Assembly (NCBI GenBank): GCA_019057815.1
Contig: JAHLWR010000014.1
Span: 1-64,000, forward strand
Direction: 5' to 3'
DNA length: 64,000 bases
Source of the DNA: Candidatus Heimdallarchaeota archaeon
Lineage (GTDB): Archaea > Asgardarchaeota > Heimdallarchaeia > Heimdallarchaeales > Heimdallarchaeaceae
Shown: one piece after another, positions 5,694-55,085 of the stretch
Numbering within the stretch: position 1 is the first letter of the stretch
How the letters are laid out: each line of letters begins with the position of its first letter
The notes under the pieces: model-generated
Databases searched by the model: none
Seen by the model: only the letters and a program-made list of their open reading frames with translations
Told to the model about the DNA's origin: nothing
Program-made: the position numbers and the translations under genes

Positions 5694-5878
5694 ACCTTAA
5701 TGCGTTTTAAATTGAAAAGTTTTAAATTTAGAAGAAATTTAACTAAACGTTATCTATTCCTTATCTTGTTGAATTAGGTTTTTCTGATTTTTATATGTAT
5801 GCAAAAATCATCTGTTTTTCCGTAAAAAAACAAGCGTAAATAAATTTATACAAGCTATGAATAATACTTCTTGTATCT

Positions 5879-43145: not shown

Positions 43146-44768
43146 CTATATTCTTAGAATTTTTCCTTCCAGAACTTCTTGCAGTTTTCCTTTCTCTACA
43201 GTAATCTTACCATTTACGATAACATAATCTATTCCTGTCGAGAATCTATGAGGTTCTTCATATGTAGCTTCATCTTTAACAGTTTCAGGATCGAATATTA
43301 CTATATCCGCCCAGTAGTTTTCTTTTATTAGTCCACGTTCTTCTAAATCCAGTTTCTTCGCTGGGAATCCAGTCATCTTCCAGATTGCTTCTTCTAATGA
43401 CAACCATTTTTCTTCTCTTACAAATTTACCTAGCACTCTTGGGAATGTTCCATAAAATCTAGGATGGGGTTTACCATGACTTAAAGGACCTTCGGGAGAA
43501 ACACCTGAACCATCGGTTGAGACCATACTATATTCACTTGTCATAATCCTTTTGATATCTTCTTCTCCCATACTTTCGATTGTTATCCAAACCGCACCTT
43601 TCTCGTCACTAATTATACTAAAGAGAGTTTCATAATCATCTTTAAGATTTCGTATTTTTGTTATTTCAGCAATGCTTTTTCCTTCAATGTCTAACCATTT
43701 ATCAGTTTTAACCGAAGCAATGAAGATATTCTCAAAACCTTGATGTTTAGCAAAGTTCTCTTGATCTGTTAATCCTTCTTCCATCTCGTTTTTGATTTTC
43801 TCTCTATTCTTTGCATCATCTAATCTTTCAAGTATTGATTCAATTCCACCAACGTGAACCCAAGGAGGGAGAATAGTGATAAGAGAAGTCATACTTCTAT
43901 TGTAGGGGTATTGATCACAAGTTATGTCCAATCCTCTTTGATTTGCTTCATGAATAATCTGTAATGTTTTCTTACTTAATCCCCAATTAGTTATACCTGA
44001 AGCTTTATGGTGAGCAATTTGTCCGCTCTTACAACCTGACGCTTCAACAATACGAATAAACTCTTCTACAGCTTTAACAACTTTTGCACCCTCATCGCGG
44101 ATATGGGAGAAGTATATTCTATTATATTTAGCAACTATCTTAGCGAGTTCAATCACTTCATCTGTCTTAGCATAAACTTGAGGAGAATATATTAAGCCTG
44201 TACTCATACCAAAAGCTCCAGACTGCAAAGCTTCTTCGACATAGGATTGCATTTTAATTAATTCTTCAGAGGTTGGTGGACGATCTTCATAACCTGGTCC
44301 CCCAGCAAGGCGGATAGCGCCAAAACCGACAAAAGGAACAATATTCATAGAACATTTACCTTTCTCCAGTTCTTTCAAATAATCTTCAAAACTCCTCCAA
44401 GACAGATCAATTTCAACACCTGGAGGACTCCACATGTCAACTTCTTTTTTGAAAAGATCAAAGGTTTCGTCACTGATAGGTGCAAGTGAAATACCGCATT
44501 GTCCCACAGCAGCTGTTGTTATACCTTGAGTAATCATGGATTCAAGCTTGTTGCTGATTGGAATATTGCTGTCAGAATGACTGTGAATATCAATAAATCC
44601 TGGAGCAATAATTAACCCTTTTGCATCAATTACTATGGTTGCTTTATCAGAGATTACTTTTTTAATTTTGGTTATTTTTCCTTCTTTAATCGCTAAATCT
44701 GATAAATAGGGAGGATTACCTGTACCATCAACAATTCTTCCATTGTTTATAACAATATCATAAACCAT
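43146..44768 (-). CDS. N-acyl-D-amino-acid deacylase (amidohydrolase family)
   Basis: PGFIDIHSHSD, QGITT, SHIRDE, PHPRFYGTFPR, ADIVIFD. Confidence 0.92.
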   Translation of the reverse strand: MVYDIVINNGRIVDGTGNPPYLSDLAIKEGKITKIKKVISDKATIVIDAKGLIIAPGFIDIHSHSDSNIPISNKLESMITQGITTAAVGQCGISLAPISDETFDLFKKEVDMWSPPGVEIDLSWRSFEDYLKELEKGKCSMNIVPFVGFGAIRLAGGPGYEDRPPTSEELIKMQSYVEEALQSGAFGMSTGLIYSPQVYAKTDEVIELAKIVAKYNRIYFSHIRDEGAKVVKAVEEFIRIVEASGCKSGQIAHHKASGITNWGLSKKTLQIIHEANQRGLDITCDQYPYNRSMTSLITILPPWVHVGGIESILERLDDAKNREKIKNEMEEGLTDQENFAKHQGFENIFIASVKTDKWLDIEGKSIAEITKIRNLKDDYETLFSIISDEKGAVWITIESMGEEDIKRIMTSEYSMVSTDGSGVSPEGPLSHGKPHPRFYGTFPRVLGKFVREEKWLSLEEAIWKMTGFPAKKLDLEERGLIKENYWADIVIFDPETVKDEATYEEPHRFSTGIDYVIVNGKITVEKGKLQEVLEGKILRI

Positions 44769-44864
44769 TTTACTCGAGTGAATTCACCCAACATCGTTTA
44801 TAACTGTTCCTTCTTCCTTCAGACTAACTAAAATAGAATAACTGGAAATAACAAACATGAGTTA

Positions 44865-45075
44865 TTTTCCCCACTTTCCCCAGATTGAAGGGTAGTGGAA
44901 GACAATTTTGAGGACTCTGCCCAACCCAGGAGCGTTTAAGGGAGCATCGCTTAAAGCAGTAGTTTAGGGAGTTTCAAGCTCTGGGATTACACCTCCAACA
45001 CACAGTGTTAGCGGAGGTGAGAGGGTTCATCTCCTCACCGGGACTCATTACTGGAGACAGTGTTATTGAGAACCT
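44865..45075 (-). ncRNA. Predicted omega-RNA (reRNA) scaffold plus guide of TnpB
   Basis: Hairpins GGTGAG..CTCACC, CCTCC..GGAGG and CCCAG..CTGGG. An internal TTGAA can pair with the terminal TTCAA. The guide would be TCTGGGGAAAGTGGGGAAAA. The 5' end is uncertain. Confidence 0.65.
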
Positions 45076-46553
45076 TAGGCTCTCACTCCAGCTCCGGGGG
45101 TAAGCAGATGACTCTGCTTCGTCTGTAGCCATTGGCTCAAGACAGGGAAGACACGAAAAGAAATGAGTGGAAAAAACTTTCCACTAACTTGGTCTTTAAT
45201 GGAGTTGTATTTTGGTTGCAGAACATATTTTATCAGTCTTTTAGCAATATTCTTCGCCCCATTCAAGTCTGCATTAAGGTTGTACCCACAGGTATGGCAG
45301 ATGAATGTTGGTTGGTTGGGACGGATAGTGTGATAGGATCCACAACGCGAACAATAAGAAGATGTTCCCGATTCACCTATTGCTAGTATCCTGTGCTCCT
45401 CCCATCCTTGTAAAGAGAGCTTGAATTTCAGCAATTCTACCACTCTCCTATAATTCCATTTGTGGACATTTTTACGAGAGTGAGGGTAGAGATTACCCCT
45501 ATAATGACTCTTGCGGATATGAAGGGGGAAGCCTACCACTACATAGAGGTCATATCTCTTGCCAACAGAGAGAATATACTTTACTAACTTGTTGACATAG
45601 GTGTGGTCGGTTAGTTGATGTTCTGTTCTTTGGCGCTTTCTGAGCGATTTAAGTTGGTGGAGAAGACTGTCTCTCTTGTTTACATTCAAACTATGTTTAG
45701 CACTAATTTTCTGCAGTTTAGCGATCTTTCTTTCAGTTTCCTTTAGTAGTTTTTTTCGTGTCTTATCAGACCAGAATCTGATCTCATGACGATTGATAGC
45801 TCCTTTCGGAGTTAACAGTGCACTTACTGCACGCTTGTTGATTCCTAGGTCTATCCCCAGCACAGCTGGAGGACGAGAAGAAGAGTATTTATCTGGAACA
45901 TGAAGCAAGATGAAATGTACCCACCACTCCTTCTTCTTGGGATAGCAGAGCACTTCTAGTGCCTGTAATTTCCCCTGATTTAGGTTATGTTCATGATAAG
46001 GTGAACAAGCTAAAGGTAACCACAATTTCTCGTGTTTGTGAGTGTTGTTCTTCTTTGTATCGAAGGAGTCTCTTATCCCCACCCACCATCGGGCAATGGA
46101 GTTGGAAGGAGAACAAGTAAGAATAAACCTTTTAGCATGTGATAGCTGTGTCCGGGGGATTTTTTTAAGTGTAGGATCTTTAGCAGGCGCTGAGTTATTT
46201 GCTTGTTGACTGTGGTAGATGGCTACAGCGTTCTCTCTACATTCTTGGAACTCATTCTGAGAGCAGCGTGGAAAGCTCTTTTTAAAATCGTGTCTAACTG
46301 TAGGGCGATTGGGTAATTTATTCATCTTGCATGTTGTAAGCGTAAGATGGTCTAGTTTTGCTTTACTCACCTTCTTCTTACCCTTCTTTGTTATTGCTAT
46401 TTGCTCTTCATTGTGGTATATTACTTTGAGGTACTGTTTGATTATTCTCGTGTCTCTCCCCGTAATCTGTTCCAGTCTTTTTCTTTTCCGTGTTGTGATC
46501 ACTTCTGCTTTCACTCTCACTTTTACAGTCGTTCTCACCCCACTTCTCGTCAT
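45075..46553 (-). CDS. tnpB: RNA-guided endonuclease TnpB with rearranged RuvC-II
   Basis: RuvC-I LGIDLGI; RuvC-II region YVVVGFP (no Glu); IGESGTSSYCSRC...CHTC Zn finger; RuvC-III NADLNGAKNI. Confidence 0.92.
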   Translation of the reverse strand: MTRSGVRTTVKVRVKAEVITTRKRKRLEQITGRDTRIIKQYLKVIYHNEEQIAITKKGKKKVSKAKLDHLTLTTCKMNKLPNRPTVRHDFKKSFPRCSQNEFQECRENAVAIYHSQQANNSAPAKDPTLKKIPRTQLSHAKRFILTCSPSNSIARWWVGIRDSFDTKKNNTHKHEKLWLPLACSPYHEHNLNQGKLQALEVLCYPKKKEWWVHFILLHVPDKYSSSRPPAVLGIDLGINKRAVSALLTPKGAINRHEIRFWSDKTRKKLLKETERKIAKLQKISAKHSLNVNKRDSLLHQLKSLRKRQRTEHQLTDHTYVNKLVKYILSVGKRYDLYVVVGFPLHIRKSHYRGNLYPHSRKNVHKWNYRRVVELLKFKLSLQGWEEHRILAIGESGTSSYCSRCGSYHTIRPNQPTFICHTCGYNLNADLNGAKNIAKRLIKYVLQPKYNSIKDQVSGKFFPLISFRVFPVLSQWLQTKQSHLLTPGAGVRA

Positions 46554-46797
46554 TCTAGGATCATTACTTATGTTAGATTTCCCTATAAAAAGTTAACTCA
46601 AATGTGGGGAAAGCGGGGAAAATTTACCATGCTTACATTACTATTCAAAAAAAATAAGATGTTTTTAGTTATGCAGAAATAGATGAAAGAGAAGAATAGT
46701 TATCTTCTTTTTTTCAGAAAAAAAGTTAAGCTTATTCCTCCAACTACAATAACTAACCCAGCAATGTAATATAATATGTGTTGGATTTGTTCAATTG

Positions 46798-50697: not shown

Positions 50698-52770
50698 TTA
50701 AAAAGTCCTATAAATTATTGCTTCTATTTTGTTAATCTTACTTTGATTCAGAATTTTTGTGATCTGTTCACTTTTTTGTAAATCCTGCCAAATATTTGAA
50801 TTCTTAATATTTGTGATGAAATTTTCTATTCTTTTTGAAGCTGTATATGATTCACCCTTGTAAACATAACAAAAATATAATGATGCAATCTTTTTTATGA
50901 TTATACTATTCTCTTCATGTTTAATACGATCTATACAACCAGAAACCCCAAATGCTTCTTGAATGAAATTGTTTATAGCTGATATAAAACCTGCAACAAG
51001 CATATCGTTAAAATCTTGGGACATAGCAAAATTTTTTGAATAAATAGGAATTCCTGATTCTGATAAGAGTAAAAGAATAATAGGTTCTTCATCCTGTTCT
51101 TCTAATATTTCTAGTTCTTTTTGTTTCCACATATTGCTTACTATTTCATCGAATTTTGTAGTTTTAATACGCTCAATTAGAGAAACATCCTTTTTTTCTA
51201 GTTCTTCCCATAGTTCTAATTTCTCAAGTAACAGATCATGTTCTTTAGAAATTTTCCTTGCTAGTTTTGTTAACCCCTTTTCTTCTGCTATAATTTATGC
51301 TTGAGTTAACAAATGTCTAGCTTCATTCAAATCAAACTGTATTGCAGATAATTGTGAATGTAGCCAATAAGTTTCAGCAAGTAAGTGATAATTACTCTGC
51401 GCTTTAGCAATCTTAATTAAATCCTGAAAAATAAGTTGAGCCTCTATCAGAGCTTCTTTATCACCATAATGACTAATTTCAGAAATAAGTAATTCAAATT
51501 TGTTGAGTAAAGCTATAACAGTTAATCTATGGTCTACTACTTCTTCACTAATTAACTGTGTAAGAAGAATTTCTGCTTGAACTCTATCTCTAGCGTGAGT
51601 ACTAGTTTTTAGTTTTAGTGCATGAGCAATTTGATAACGTTGGCTGACAATTTTGTTTTCTTCCTGTTCATGAATTTGTTTTAGTAGTTGTAAGTACTCT
51701 TGGGTTTGATCATAAGAATGCATGTTAATAGATAAAATAACTAGAAAAAAGAGAACCTCAGCTAAATCGATTTTGTTTCCTAATTCTTCAAAAAGAACTA
51801 CGCTTCGTTCAAAGTGATTAAAAGCTTTGTTCAGCTCGTCTTTCTGTTGATAAATTACCCCCATATTAGTGATAGAATAAGCTATGAATAGCTTATTACC
51901 AAGTACTTCACTTATTACTAAAGATTGTTGCAAGAATTCCAATGCACGATCTAATTCGCCTTTATCTTTGTATAGATCACCCATATTAACAAGAATAATT
52001 GTATTTCCTCTCTTATCACCTAATTTCTCATTTATTGTTAAAGCTTGACTGTAATTATCTAATGCTTTATCTAATTCACCTTGAAGTTTGTAGATAACTC
52101 CTATATTAACAAAAGACCTAGCCATCCTCTCTTCATTTACTAATTCTTCACTTATTTTCAAACTCCTCTGGAAACAAACTAAAGCATGATCCAGTTCACC
52201 TTTTCGCGTGTAAATTTGTCCAGTACCATTTAGTATTTTCGTAATGTCTTGCTTATTACCTAATACTTCGTTTATCATTAAACTCTGCTGGAAACAATCT
52301 AAAGCTCGATCCAATTCATCTTTATGCAAAAGAGCTACTCCTTTATGAAGCAATAATGCAGCTTTTCGTGGTTTTTTTCCAGATAGTGGTTTTATTTCTA
52401 ATCTTTGAAGTACTTTTTCCCCTTGCTCAACAACTTCTAATCCTCTATCATATTGACCAAGGAGCCATAATGCTTCTGCCATAATTATTAAAGCATCGAC
52501 TTTAATCTCTTCTCTTTCTTCCCCTTCCATTTCTTCAATGTGTTCTTCTTCTCTTACGACTTGTTGTGCTATATTCAATGCGGTTTTATGATCACTCTGT
52601 CCAAGCAAGCATCTACTCTTTACAATTTTACATCTTAAATAGAATGCATTCATAGGAGCTTGTTTTTCTATCTCTTCTACTTCTTTTAATGCATCCTCGT
52701 ATCTTCCCTCTAAAATCAGCTGTTCAATTCTTTCTAGATTCATAAACCCTATTACCTTTGTTTCGTTCAA
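50698..52770 (-). pseudogene. TPR plus longin-like protein interrupted by one in-frame TAA (51295-51297)
   Basis: Reads ...HLLTQA*IIAEEKGLTKLARKISKEHD... continuing in frame into ORF 50698-51132. The paralogue has CAA (Gln) at this position. Confidence 0.8.
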
Positions 52771-52898: not shown

Positions 52899-55085
52899 TT
52901 AGTTTGCAGGAAAGATATTTTCTATCATTGTTTCGACTCTGTTAATCTCACTTTGACTAAAACCTTTGGTAATCATTTCACTATCTTGTAAATAATCCAA
53001 TATAGGAGAATTGTTAATTTCCTTGATGAAACGTTCAAGTTTTGAAGAAGCAGCGTATGATCCACCTTTAAAGACATAGCAGATAAACATTGATTCAATG
53101 TGTTTTATCAGAATAGTATTTTCTTTATGTTTAATACGATCTATGTATCCAGAAACTCCAAAAGCATCTTGAATGAAATTGTTTATAGCTGATATAAAGC
53201 CTGCAACAAGCATATCATCAATTTCTTGGGACATAGCAAAATTTTTAGAGTAAATTGGAATTCCAGTCTCATATAATAATATTAAAACAATTGGTTCTTC
53301 TTCTTGTTCTTCTAACATTTCCAGCTCCTTTTTCATCCGTATTTTTTTAACTAATTCTTCTAATTTTGCTATTTTCTCACCTTCAATAAGAGAATTATCC
53401 ATCTTTGATAATTCTTCCCATTGTTCTATTTGAATTAATAAATTATCATGCTCACTGGATAATTTAACAGCTAGTCGAGAGAGACCCTTCTCTTCTGCAA
53501 TAATTTGAGCTTGAGTTAGCAAATGCCTTGCTACATTAAAATCATATTGCACTATAGCCAACTGTGCTTGTAACCAATAAGATTCAGTAAACAATAGATA
53601 TGAATTTTGCATTTTAGCAATCTTAATTAGGTTACTAGACAACAAATGAGCTTCTCTCAAAACTTCCTGATTACCATAATGACTAAATTCTGAAATAAGT
53701 AATTCAAACAAACAGAGCAGAGCTACAACTTTTAATTCATTATCTACACCTTCTTCGCTCAATATCTGCTCAAAAAGCTCTCCAGCCTCAACTCTAGAAC
53801 GAACACGTGTGCTCGTTTTTAGAATTAATGCTTTTGATAGAATAAAGAGATGATTAATGTACTTGCTATCTTCTTTCCTATTAATTTGTTCTATCTCATC
53901 TAGTAACTTATTTGCCTTTTCTAGTGAATTCACATCAATATATGTGCAAATTAGATGAAATAAAATCCAAACCTTATAATAATTGTCTCCTATGTTCTCA
54001 AAAATCTCAAGTCCTTTACTAAAGTAATCAATTGCTAACTCTGCATTATCTTTTTTCCTATAAGTCTCTCCAATATTGGTATATAGCCAAGCCAAGCTCA
54101 ATTCATTTTCTAATTCTTCATAAATCTTTGAACTTGCTTGGTAATATTCAAGTGCTTTATCTAACTCACCCATCTTTGTATATATTATACCTATACTGAG
54201 TAGAGATGTTGGAGTGTCTTGAACATTTCCTATTTCTTCACTTATTGCTAAACTCTTGATGAAATCATCTAAAGCTCCCTTAATATCACCAGTTTTTCCT
54301 TTAACAACACCTAGAGTATTAAGAGTTTGTGCAATACCAATTTGATCCCCCATCTCTTCTCTTAATGCCAAACCTTTTCTTAAAAACTCAAAAGACAGAT
54401 GGAACTCCTCTTTATGGTGGTAATATACTCCATAATTACGATAAGATTCAGCTAAACCAGTTTTGTCTCCTATCTCTTCTCTAATTTTCATACTTTGTTG
54501 ATAATAGTCAAATGAACGATTATGATCACCTTTAATTGTGTAACTAACTCCAATATTACCTAATGTGTTAGCAATATTTTGCTTGTTATCTAGTTGTTCA
54601 TATAATTTTAAACTCCTTTCAAAAACGGATATAGACTTATCCAGATTTCCTTCAAGAAAAAATTGACAACCCTTTTGATATAAAATTGAAGCTTCTCTTG
54701 ATTTATGCTTAAGATGCCTTTCTTTTTGCAATTCTTTGAGGATGTTCATACTTTTTTCTATAACTTCTTGACTTTTATTATATTCACCAAAATATTGCAG
54801 TATTTCTGCTTTTACTAGTAAGGAATCTATTAACAGTCCTTTCTTTTGTGTTTCTTGTAAATCATCAATTGAATTTTGAATTAGACTAAAAGCTTTTTCC
54901 AACGCCCCTATCTTTATCAGATTTTTACTTCTTAATATTCTACATCTTATTCTTTCATTTACTTTTTTTTGTTCTTTTTCTATCTTCTCAAGCTCTTCAA
55001 TAGCTTCAATAATTTTTCCCTCAAGTACTAGACTATTGATTTTCTGATTGTTAGTTGAATTAGAGATAGAGATCACCAACTCCAT
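52899..55085 (-). CDS. TPR protein with C-terminal longin/roadblock-like domain
   Basis: Multiple TPR_12-like repeats (ANTLGNIG, AQTLNTLG), then LILLYETGIPIYS...LVAGFISAINNF. Confidence 0.85.
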   Translation of the reverse strand: MELVISISNSTNNQKINSLVLEGKIIEAIEELEKIEKEQKKVNERIRCRILRSKNLIKIGALEKAFSLIQNSIDDLQETQKKGLLIDSLLVKAEILQYFGEYNKSQEVIEKSMNILKELQKERHLKHKSREASILYQKGCQFFLEGNLDKSISVFERSLKLYEQLDNKQNIANTLGNIGVSYTIKGDHNRSFDYYQQSMKIREEIGDKTGLAESYRNYGVYYHHKEEFHLSFEFLRKGLALREEMGDQIGIAQTLNTLGVVKGKTGDIKGALDDFIKSLAISEEIGNVQDTPTSLLSIGIIYTKMGELDKALEYYQASSKIYEELENELSLAWLYTNIGETYRKKDNAELAIDYFSKGLEIFENIGDNYYKVWILFHLICTYIDVNSLEKANKLLDEIEQINRKEDSKYINHLFILSKALILKTSTRVRSRVEAGELFEQILSEEGVDNELKVVALLCLFELLISEFSHYGNQEVLREAHLLSSNLIKIAKMQNSYLLFTESYWLQAQLAIVQYDFNVARHLLTQAQIIAEEKGLSRLAVKLSSEHDNLLIQIEQWEELSKMDNSLIEGEKIAKLEELVKKIRMKKELEMLEEQEEEPIVLILLYETGIPIYSKNFAMSQEIDDMLVAGFISAINNFIQDAFGVSGYIDRIKHKENTILIKHIESMFICYVFKGGSYAASSKLERFIKEINNSPILDYLQDSEMITKGFSQSEINRVETMIENIFPAN

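Follow-up and report, generated by a model that had tools for sequence, protein, structure and literature searches.

Cas12 and the eukaryotic Fanzors both descend from TnpB. In the IS607 family (IS607, IS1535, ISC1926), a tnpB with a 3' guide-RNA region is combined with a serine-recombinase TnpA. The ends of IS607 carry imperfect inverted repeats close to the termini, with 9-bp direct-repeat motifs that are bound by TnpA, and one short sequence occurs at each terminus as well as, in a single copy, in the empty target, without any duplication (Chen et al. 2018, PMC6188088). Archaea are well known to contain elements with tnpB alone, as well as non-coding derivatives of these, and the transposase-less IS1341 group and PATEs of haloarchaea insert in one orientation by a short target, with palindromes at both ends, as in IS605-type elements, and no inverted repeat between the ends (PMC3119063). 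DDE-associated TnpBs (DDE-1 to DDE-6) have inverted terminal repeats in all six of their branches, and solo TnpBs with the same ends, moved in trans, are also known (Altae-Tran et al. 2023, PMC10691335). Many Fanzors are carried by eukaryotic transposons with terminal inverted repeats.

We analysed a window of 64,000 nucleotides from a Candidatus Heimdallarchaeota archaeon (contig JAHLWR010000014.1) and read positions 44857–46628 of its minus strand as a member of a non-autonomous family of TnpB/guide-RNA transposons in Heimdallarchaeia, which inserts in a fixed orientation at CAT and would be moved in trans; we place the probability of this reading at roughly 0.55. The element shares with the IS607 family a tnpB with a 3' guide-RNA region, the absence of target duplication, a core found at each terminus and singly in the empty target, and subterminal imperfect inverted repeats made up of 9-bp direct-repeat motifs. 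It differs in its core (CAT(G) versus GG), in arms that are equidistant from the ends whereas those of described IS607 ends are not, and in that no tnpA (N-terminal MerR-like HTH plus serine-recombinase domain) is present in the element and none matching it was found in the genome, whose own IS607-like elements have quite different, asymmetric ends. With the IS1341 group and PATEs it has in common the lack of a transposase, tnpB as the only gene, many diverged copies, oriented and duplication-free insertion by a short target, non-coding deletion derivatives that keep the ends, and a near-terminal hairpin at the right end; unlike PATEs and IS605-type elements, it has no conserved hairpin at the left end and has an 18-bp inverted repeat common to both ends. 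As in the DDE-associated systems, TnpB lies between symmetric inverted repeats and would be moved in trans, but insertion is oriented and leaves no clear staggered-cut duplication, the DDE families covered by the search (DDE_Tnp_1, PF13358, PF13359) gave no element with related ends and were represented by IS5-like genes only, and this TnpB belongs to an Asgard-only clade. The resemblance to Fanzor transposons, in which a TnpB-family nuclease likewise sits in an element ended by inverted repeats, is one of layout, met here in the archaeal lineage nearest to eukaryotes, and unlike Fanzor carriers the element encodes an ordinary-size prokaryotic TnpB. We know of no eukaryotic superfamily with similar ends and target.

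A first-pass annotation of the window had described an inverted repeat matching at 18 of 19 positions on either side of tnpB, with a CATG outside each arm, and both observations were borne out: ATTTTCCCCACTTTCCCCA at 44864–44882 and its reverse complement at 46605–46623 differ by one mismatch (A/G), and CATG is found at 44856–44859 and 46628–46631, each 4 nt outside the inverted repeat. Extension of the pair by a repeat finder gave 34 nt (79%). The repeat is not due to chance, because inverted pairs of the 18-mer occur at 11 places in the genome while a reversed control pattern had 0 matches, which disposes of the idea of a one-off coincidence. Read in the sense of the element (minus strand), the target CAT (46629–46631) is flank DNA that abuts the left end, occurs once in each empty site and is presumed to be the TAM. 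It is followed by the left-terminal hexamer G+NNNNN, here GGTAAA (46623–46628; from the left-end alignment), the left arm of the subterminal inverted repeat (46605–46622), which consists of the two 9-bp direct repeats TTTTCCCCG and CTTTCCCCA, a conserved TATA-box-like block (TTTTTATA, 46584–46591) ~30 nt upstream of the tnpB start that we presume to be an archaeal promoter, and an intact tnpB of 492 aa (45075–46553; ORF and Pfam). The predicted guide-RNA (omega-RNA) region (44857–45144) comprises the last 66 nt of tnpB and the 218 non-coding nt between tnpB and the right end; within it lie a near-terminal hairpin (44871–44898), recognised by sequence reading and a minimum-free-energy fold, the right arm (44865–44882; sense TGGGGAAAGTGGGGAAAA) and the invariant right terminus TAACTCAT (44857–44864; sense), which ends in CAT. 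The first flank base past the right end (44856, sense G) is host DNA and completes the second CATG. The neighbouring gene, called a D-aminoacylase in the first-pass annotation, is an amidohydrolase-family ORF (43146–44768). Contigs of other copies from metagenome runs depart from the window sequence at precisely 44856/44857 and at ~46623–46633. Contigs of four DNA runs contained no excision or circle joints, structures that contigs would not be expected to reveal. No clean empty allele of the orthologous site of the window copy was found in relatives, an extra gene of ~650 bp being present there.

The genome contains five long copies (~1776 bp, each with tnpB) and six short copies (~355 bp), all with unrelated flanks, and when the genome was scanned for the repeat with as many as 4 mismatches allowed, the only matches were these 11 pairs and some solo remnants, none of which adjoins a transposase-like ORF. 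The same layout is found in relatives from the same genus, from genus g3 and from Ca. Heimdallarchaeum, the latter with 13–18 copies plus at least 10 short copies. The left repeat arm is kept in relatives down to 65% TnpB identity, and in Ca. Heimdallarchaeum TTTTTTACGTAA replaces the repeat sequence in both arms. The repeat belongs to the mobile element and not to a host hairpin, and the combination of constant inverted repeats with varying flanks is what had been proposed as the test for a TIR-bounded, MITE-like element. Three pairs of empty and filled sites were recovered: the empty sites have one CAT, followed by A, G or T, and no hairpin, the filled sites have two CAT, and nothing else is duplicated; the bases of the left-end hexamer are missing from the empty sites.

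Immediately before the left end, CAT is found in 11/11 copies from this genome and in 12 of the 14 distinct flanks overall (variants CAA and CAC), and its C is present at every left-end junction in this genome, the relatives and Heimdallarchaeum. The right end terminates in CAT in 26 of 27 distinct cases (CGT in one), and the base that follows it is G (n = 19), A (n = 6), T (n = 1) or C (n = 1) in the 27 distinct flanks. The G of the left-end hexamer is constant and its next five bases vary among copies, and both repeat arms, each of two 9-bp direct repeats, are subterminal, lying 9 nt inside the ends. The junctions show that the element inserts in one orientation directly 3' of a host 5'-CAT-3', with CAT|G as the preferred target, since the C at the left end is always kept and the mirror G at the right end is found in only 19/27 flanks (8/13 in Heimdallarchaeum). 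The paired CATG motifs had been taken for a 4-bp target-site duplication; they are not one, because empty sites have a single CAT, the right end brings its own CAT and the next base is variable, the left G being part of the element and the right G only a preference (19/27). The oriented CAT could also reflect later selection for the TAM of TnpB instead of the chemistry of insertion.

The short copies consist of the left 70 nt and the right 286 nt of the element, align to positions 44856–45144 of the window, and keep the TATA block, the guide-RNA region and both ends; the TATA-like block GTTAGCTTTTTATAGG is conserved in all copies, long and short. They are deletion derivatives of the tnpB element. 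Internal deletion that spares the 22 C-terminal codons of tnpB together with the guide-RNA region is the reverse of the suggested capture of tnpB by a MITE. The first-pass model of a TIR-bounded, MITE-like element is nevertheless nearer to the data than the insertion into a hairpin with which it had been paired: the inverted repeats move as part of the element and there are short copies that resemble MITEs, but its CATG duplication, its placement of the repeats at the very termini and the capture of tnpB do not stand. The short copies on C9 and C38 differ at only 2 of 357 nt and so moved recently, and the site of the C38 copy is empty in a sister genome.

Identity among copies is 89.7% in the non-coding right-end part, 94.5% in the last 66 coding nt and 79.7% at third codon positions, which places the non-coding right-end region ~10 points above third codon positions in conservation. 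The guide-RNA region has a folding z-score of -2.7, and the conserved 3' region stops at the right end of the element. An Rfam search of the region gave no family match, with CRISPR-DR56 as a sub-threshold hit only (E = 0.18). In the right-end hairpin, an inner partial copy (sense CCACTACCC; plus strand GGGTAGTGG, 44890–44898) pairs with part of the right arm; the hairpin is present in all copies with partial co-variation, the consensus fold that includes the Heimdallarchaeum copies being poorly aligned. Three further ideas found no support: that the right arm serves as an internal guide directed at the left end, the sequences at the would-be TAM positions being unlike; that the ends form a bulge-helix-bulge splicing motif, for which the geometry is unsuitable; and that a left-end hairpin or promoter co-varies, which is inconsistent among copies.

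The tnpB ORF of the window has a single Pfam match, Cas12f1-like_TNB. Its product carries canonical RuvC-I (D235) and RuvC-III (D429) residues and a CxxC...CxxC zinc finger, while the canonical position of the RuvC-II glutamate is occupied by glycine and E394 is found elsewhere; D235, E394 and D429 are invariant among 20 Asgard homologues, and the RuvC-II glutamate appears to be relocated. The features by which membership in TnpB can be read from sequence, i.e. the RuvC triad (with the glutamate apparently moved), the zinc finger and a 3' region that reaches the element end, are all present. Paralogous copies within the genome have a dN/dS of 0.15–0.2 at a dS of 0.35, a ratio by which tnpB is under purifying selection. 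Distant homologues at four loci (Thor, Hod, Heimdall) are solo genes only.

If the element is a TnpB/guide-RNA transposon moved in trans, its two repeat arms are candidate binding sites for a recombinase that would pair the ends, and strand exchange would take place inside the short CAT(G) core common to the joint of the element ends and the target. The exchange would be IS607-like (serine recombinase) or, less likely, IS605-like (HUH), and not a staggered-cut DDE cut-and-paste. TnpB and its guide RNA, for which we predict a scaffold that ends in ...UAACUCAU and is followed by ~16–20 nt of flank, would read the DNA adjoining the right end, with the CAT beside the left end as predicted TAM. TnpB may then cut vacated sites, so that the element would be copied back (homing), and the short copies would be guide-RNA genes served by TnpB in trans. 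None of the enzyme classes looked at (Y1 and IS607-type TnpA, Cas1, DDE) yielded a cognate transposase, two complete genomes showed no recognisable one, and tnpA is lacking from 11/11 copies and from the copies of the relatives. The genome has three IS607-type tnpA genes, all in other elements. The IS607-type TnpA elements of this genome and the relatives have asymmetric ends unrelated to those of the tnpB element, as read for the C27-type; the C9/C18-type stops at contig ends, with its partner DNA outside the assembly. With the query used, neither of the two complete Heimdallarchaeum genomes gave a homologue of IS607-type TnpA, and each contains only two small N-terminal-domain serine recombinases.

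An unlikely alternative is that the element derives from a DDE-type TIR transposon, for which an unlinked transposase would recognise the symmetric repeats, cut at G...C and leave a 2-bp AT duplication, tnpB being cargo. Both ends read AT-G-N5-TTTTCCCC and are symmetric if AT is taken as the duplication, and the junction data cannot separate such a 2-bp duplication from a shared crossover core. IS5-like DDE_Tnp_1 genes, moreover, are present in 5/5 genomes tested. Against this stand the strictly oriented insertion and the asymmetric target described above, in which C before AT is kept without exception and its mirror base is not, as well as the subterminal position of the repeats and a variable outer pentamer at one end only; on these features the junctions appear to suit oriented, site-specific insertion of the IS607 or IS605 kind better than DDE cut-and-paste. 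The IS5-like elements also have repeats (AAGCATGTCCAAAAAYT) with no relation to those of the tnpB element; these IS5-like repeats stay constant from one genus to the next, unlike the tnpB-element repeats, and the IS5-like target footprints are different. Among the DDE families covered by the search (DDE_Tnp_1, PF13358, PF13359), IS630-type and PIF/Harbinger-type domains (PF13358, PF13359) were found in 0/5 genomes.

Mobilisation as single-stranded DNA by a Y1 HUH TnpA acting in trans, as for an IS200/IS605-type element of the IS1341 group, seems doubtful to us. On this view the inverted repeat represents the outer arms of similar near-terminal hairpins, and the short copies are PATEs. Duplication-free insertion in one orientation, 3' of a short target, a matching motif that closes the right end, the hairpin 14 nt from that end and the Y1 tnpA genes of this genome all agree with this. 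The recently moved short copies, however, have no matching or conserved hairpin at the left end, where a candidate pairing shows no co-variation, and arms on opposite strands would not be used by a strand-specific enzyme. Y1 tnpA genes occur in this genome only in classical hairpin-ended IS605 elements with other ends, which we take to be IS608-like from their apparent TTAC...TCAA ends (two copies read), and the complete Heimdallarchaeum genome G004 has no Y1 gene.

Known casposases make long duplications, which counts against a Cas1-like transposase (aCas1) as the mobilising enzyme. Such an enzyme has been proposed for the Cas1H-Asgard groups, two Asgard TnpB groups that are tied to aCas1 and have flanking repeats (Altae-Tran et al. 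2023, PMC10691335), and a Thorarchaeal homologue of our TnpB (38% identity) has the GTTCACTC motif of these groups. Besides two CRISPR-linked Cas1 genes, this genome has a solo copy flanked by perfect 41-bp inverted repeats, which also occur many times on their own; the solo gene is degraded, the repeats around it bear no relation to those at the ends of the tnpB element, and no TnpB lies within 1.5 kb of Cas1 at 30 Cas1 loci across the phylum, so we regard this explanation as very improbable. The remaining first-pass model, an IS605-type unit in the loop of a pre-existing REP-like host hairpin, is refuted by the three empty alleles, none of which has a hairpin: removal of 44885–46597 does leave a 19-bp stem, which is trivial for any inverted repeat, but the arms travel with the element to 11 unrelated sites, no free hairpins were found, only two solo right-end remnants, and the proposed inner border TTTGA|GTTAAC varies, with TTCTA, TTTAA, TTTTA and TTTCT in other copies.

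The proposed trans-mobilised family bears on the passage of TnpB from the hairpin-ended carriers of the IS605 and IS607 type to carriers with inverted repeats. It would bring together, in the archaea closest to eukaryotes, a TnpB-only gene content, symmetric repeat ends, oriented and duplication-free insertion at CAT and recently moved satellites, which we describe as guide-RNA-only and, given their TATA-like motif, probably self-promoted; we ascribe the same combination to sister families in this genome. Its enzyme, once found, would either widen the range of serine or HUH transposases or show a new partner of TnpB. We also consider, as a speculation that is rather improbable, that Heimdallarchaeia and other Asgard lineages share a class of TnpB transposons with ATG...CAT termini, inverted-repeat ends and oriented CAT insertion, moved by an enzyme new to TnpB, be it a recombinase that has gone unrecognised, a small serine recombinase encoded by the host, or TnpB and its guide RNA working on the ends of their own element. 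If real, this class would represent a prokaryotic stage intermediate between IS605/IS607-type carriers and TIR-type (Fanzor-like) ones. With their small size and exact borders, and with CAT as the predicted TAM, the short elements offer a directly testable nuclease/guide pair from a clade with an apparently relocated RuvC-II glutamate. A repeat-like match 400 bp upstream of a Y1 tnpA in genome G007 turned out to be a degenerate short copy beside an ordinary IS605 element.

The inverted repeat and CATG motifs described in the first-pass annotation were confirmed by direct reading: the plus strand is CATG-AGTT-ATTTTCCCCACTTTCCCCA at 44856–44882 and TGGGGAAAGCGGGGAAAAT-TTAC-CATG at 46605–46631. 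The longest inverted pair returned by a repeat finder for this region measures 34 nt, with 79% complementarity and a spacing of 1714 nt. A single intact ORF lies between the arms (45075–46553, minus strand, 492 aa), with a Cas12f1-like TNB domain as its sole Pfam match. Read on the sense (minus) strand, the left end comprises CAT, then G, five variable nucleotides and TTTTCCCCR CTTTYCCCA. Inward of this arm follows YATTTNNGTTAGC-TTTTTATA-GG, with the tnpB ATG ~30 nt further; the TTTTTATA block looks like a candidate archaeal TATA box. Downstream of tnpB lies a non-coding region of 218 nt, which is 89.7% identical among the five long copies of the element, compared with 94.5% in the last 66 coding nucleotides and 79.7% at third codon positions. 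This 3' region has a better predicted fold than its shuffled controls (z = -2.7) and matched no family in an Rfam search. In its final hairpin, a section of the right repeat arm pairs with an inner CCACTWYCC, and an invariant GGAAAATAACTCAT then runs to the right end of the element. Three tnpB-linked elements of this genome that are otherwise unrelated share the octamer CCCTTCAA close to their 3' ends (window 44883–44892; locus L021, ~1230–1255; contig C27, ~148520).

The assembly (3.74 Mb, 32.8% G+C), of which the window is contig C40, contains 11 inverted pairs of the 18-mer, each at a different site; a genome search with the reversed control pattern gave no matches. Five pairs are spaced by ~1750 nt (contigs C40, C30, C26, C39, C10) and six by ~338 nt (C1, C9, C24, C36, C37, C38). 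Homology is limited by (C)ATG at both sides in all 11 copies, and the outer flanks are mutually unrelated. In contigs of the source metagenome, agreement with the window stops exactly at 44856/44857 and around 46623–46633, and these divergence points are the ends of the repeated unit. The TnpB proteins of the long copies have 88–90% identity to the window copy (three intact, two frameshifted). The short copies join the leftmost 70 nt of the element to its last 286 nt, a stretch that covers the 22 terminal codons of tnpB together with the 3' non-coding region and the right end. These copies are deletion derivatives of the long element, comparable to PATEs, which derive from archaeal IS605-type elements (PMC3119063). 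They also retain the TTTTTATA block, which in them would drive the 3' region directly. The C9 and C38 short copies differ at 2 of 357 nt, and the C36 copy differs from each by 9–10 nt. Since C9 and C38 are near-identical and the sister genome has no insertion at the C38 site, a copy without tnpB was recently moved in trans by some enzyme.

We recovered three filled/empty orthologous pairs, read on the sense strand of the element. The first is empty on contig C5 of this genome (ACATA-CAT-AGTGAACC) and filled in the sister genome (acata-CAA-G...CAT-agtgaacc). The other two are empty in the sister genome and filled by short copies in this genome, i.e., CTAACG-CAT-GACTCG versus ctaatg-CAT-G...CAT-gactcg (C1) and GAAAAG-CAT-TAATTGG versus gagaag-CAT-G...CAT-Gaattgg (C38). 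All three empty sites hold a single CAT and no trace of a repeat arm, which excludes one of the two models first proposed, the insertion of an IS605-type unit into the loop of a REP-like host hairpin. The triplet before the left end is CAT in 12 of 14 distinct flanks (the others being CAA and CAC), while the right end terminates in CAT in 26 of 27 and is followed by a host G (n = 19), A (n = 6), T (n = 1) or C (n = 1). The symmetric CATG is therefore present in letters but composite in origin: host CAT plus element G at the left, element CAT plus a host base, usually G, at the right. G after the target is strongly enriched given the 67% A+T of the genome, and the preferred target is CAT|G. The other proposed model, a TIR-bounded, MITE-like element with a CATG target site duplication that had captured tnpB, was correct insofar as the element owns its repeats and has short copies, but wrong in the 4-bp duplication and in the direction of descent. 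At non-palindromic targets, CAT lies beside the left end at every junction in this genome, its relatives and 13 Heimdallarchaeum copies; insertion, or at least retention, is thus oriented.

The window element is a transposase-less TnpB/guide-RNA element, a kind already known, and its main interest lies in the identity of the enzyme that moves it. Four junction features, namely a single short core where the site is empty, its recurrence on both sides of the insert, strict orientation and a core-bearing right end, form the signature of IS607-/IS605-type insertion. For IS607 ends, imperfect inverted repeats near the termini have been described, made of 9-bp direct repeats bound by TnpA dimers (PMC6188088), and the two 9-mers in each arm of our element match these most closely. 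Junctions and arms taken together favour a trans-acting site-specific recombinase, which would exchange strands at the CAT(G) core, whereupon TnpB and its RNA would serve as the usual homing system with CAT as TAM.

We tentatively favour a serine-type enzyme (probability about 0.3). Three IS607-type tnpA genes of two types are present in this genome. One belongs to an IS607-like element on contig C27 (L020, ~145854–148592), which has a truncated MerR/serine-recombinase tnpA, a 652-aa TnpB-like ORF, asymmetric ends (CCGTCG...GTGCGT) and five ~375-bp satellites elsewhere in the genome; all IS607-type homologues in the relatives are of this type. The other type comprises two 96% identical copies at the ends of contigs C9 and C18 (L021:1306–1961, L022:1–656), which break off at the same base, so that the following DNA (tnpB partner, right end) is absent from the assembly. 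With this tnpA as query, no IS607-type gene was found in two complete Heimdallarchaeum genomes, each of which has only two small serine recombinases. Unlike IS607, the element combines equally spaced arms with a CAT core and has no matching tnpA among those found, and thus falls outside that family as defined. A DDE transposase making a 2-bp AT duplication is unlikely; none of the five genomes searched gave a DDE domain of the PIF/Harbinger or IS630 type. All five contain an IS5-like DDE element, which was rejected as partner, as its repeats are unrelated and genus-invariant and its footprint differs. An HUH enzyme, with which the IS605-like junctions would also agree, is if anything more doubtful: both Y1 tnpA copies of this genome lie within an IS608-like element, whose hairpins are classical and whose borders are apparently TTAC...TCAA, and one of the two complete Heimdallarchaeum genomes has no Y1 gene. 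An aCas1 is very improbable, with no TnpB beside Cas1 in a phylum-wide sample of 30 loci; some other kind of enzyme takes the remaining probability. Two of the three Cas1 genes of this genome are CRISPR-linked; the remaining one, solo and degraded (L137:1205–2742; C36:5629–7166), was rejected as partner because its flanking perfect 41-bp inverted repeats differ in sequence from those of the tnpB element. Copies of ~55 nt of this Cas1-locus repeat occur at at least 15 other sites, and in the relative G024 a fragment of the same Cas1 adjoins the amidohydrolase orthologue. This may represent a small, casposon-like transposon that carries Cas1 and has satellites.

The 168 matches to the protein family carry Asgard names only (Heimdall, Thor, Hod, Promethearchaeia), bar one weak partial match from Aenigmatarchaeota. 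Beyond this genome, the element is found in the congeneric sister genome and in a second genus (at least eight genomes), where the ends stay the same down to 65–68% protein identity. A third genus, named Ca. Heimdallarchaeum in the protein matches, is represented by two one-contig genomes with 13 and 18 copies of a related 1.87-kb element (~45% identity); at least 10 short copies of ~380 bp occur in one of these genomes. Their layout is the same (N|CATG-N6-TTTTTTACGTAA...TTACGTAAAAAA-GTAAAT-CAT|R); both arms have changed together, which points to a function requiring like ends. Four look-ups of distant family members found solo genes only. The locus of a thorarchaeal homologue (38% identity) includes an inverted repeat of 22 nt that contains GTTCACTC (L112:3946–3990, 5716–5775), and the 11-nt AGGTCTTAGGT follows each arm, at the right end 20 nt further on, a pattern reminiscent of the motif reported from the hypervariable region of Asgard TnpBs linked to aCas1.

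Paralogous copies in this genome have a dN/dS of 0.15–0.2 at a dS of ~0.35, and each old copy was thus kept functional. D235 (GIDLG), D429 (NADLNGA) and two CxxC pairs are invariant in 20 aligned Asgard homologues, as is E394 just upstream of the TS motif, while the canonical RuvC-II glutamate position (341) is an invariant glycine in this Asgard TnpB clade. This alignment suggests that the catalytic RuvC-II residue was relocated, with E394 as candidate. The arrangement resembles the catalytic-site rearrangements described, as a largely archaeal feature, by Altae-Tran et al. (PMC10691335).

Other solo-tnpB families of this genome (1370–1440 bp, ~20 copies, e.g., C33:105047–106413, C1:106497–107942, C46:37097–38470 and ~17 more) encode TnpBs of 417–420 aa that are unrelated to the window TnpB by BLASTP; they likewise have symmetric inverted repeats, start with ATG and finish with TCAT. 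In the relatives G014 and G017, a membrane-protein gene of ~650 bp lies between the amidohydrolase gene and the equivalent of window 46632, and its start codon overlaps the host CAT that adjoins the left end of the element in the window. Only the two extremities of this gene flank the element (44770–44856, 46632–46700); its body is missing, and the insertion thus came with an adjacent deletion. Elsewhere in the window, a 908-bp stretch is present twice, ~2.2 kb apart (50714–51621 and 52924–53831).
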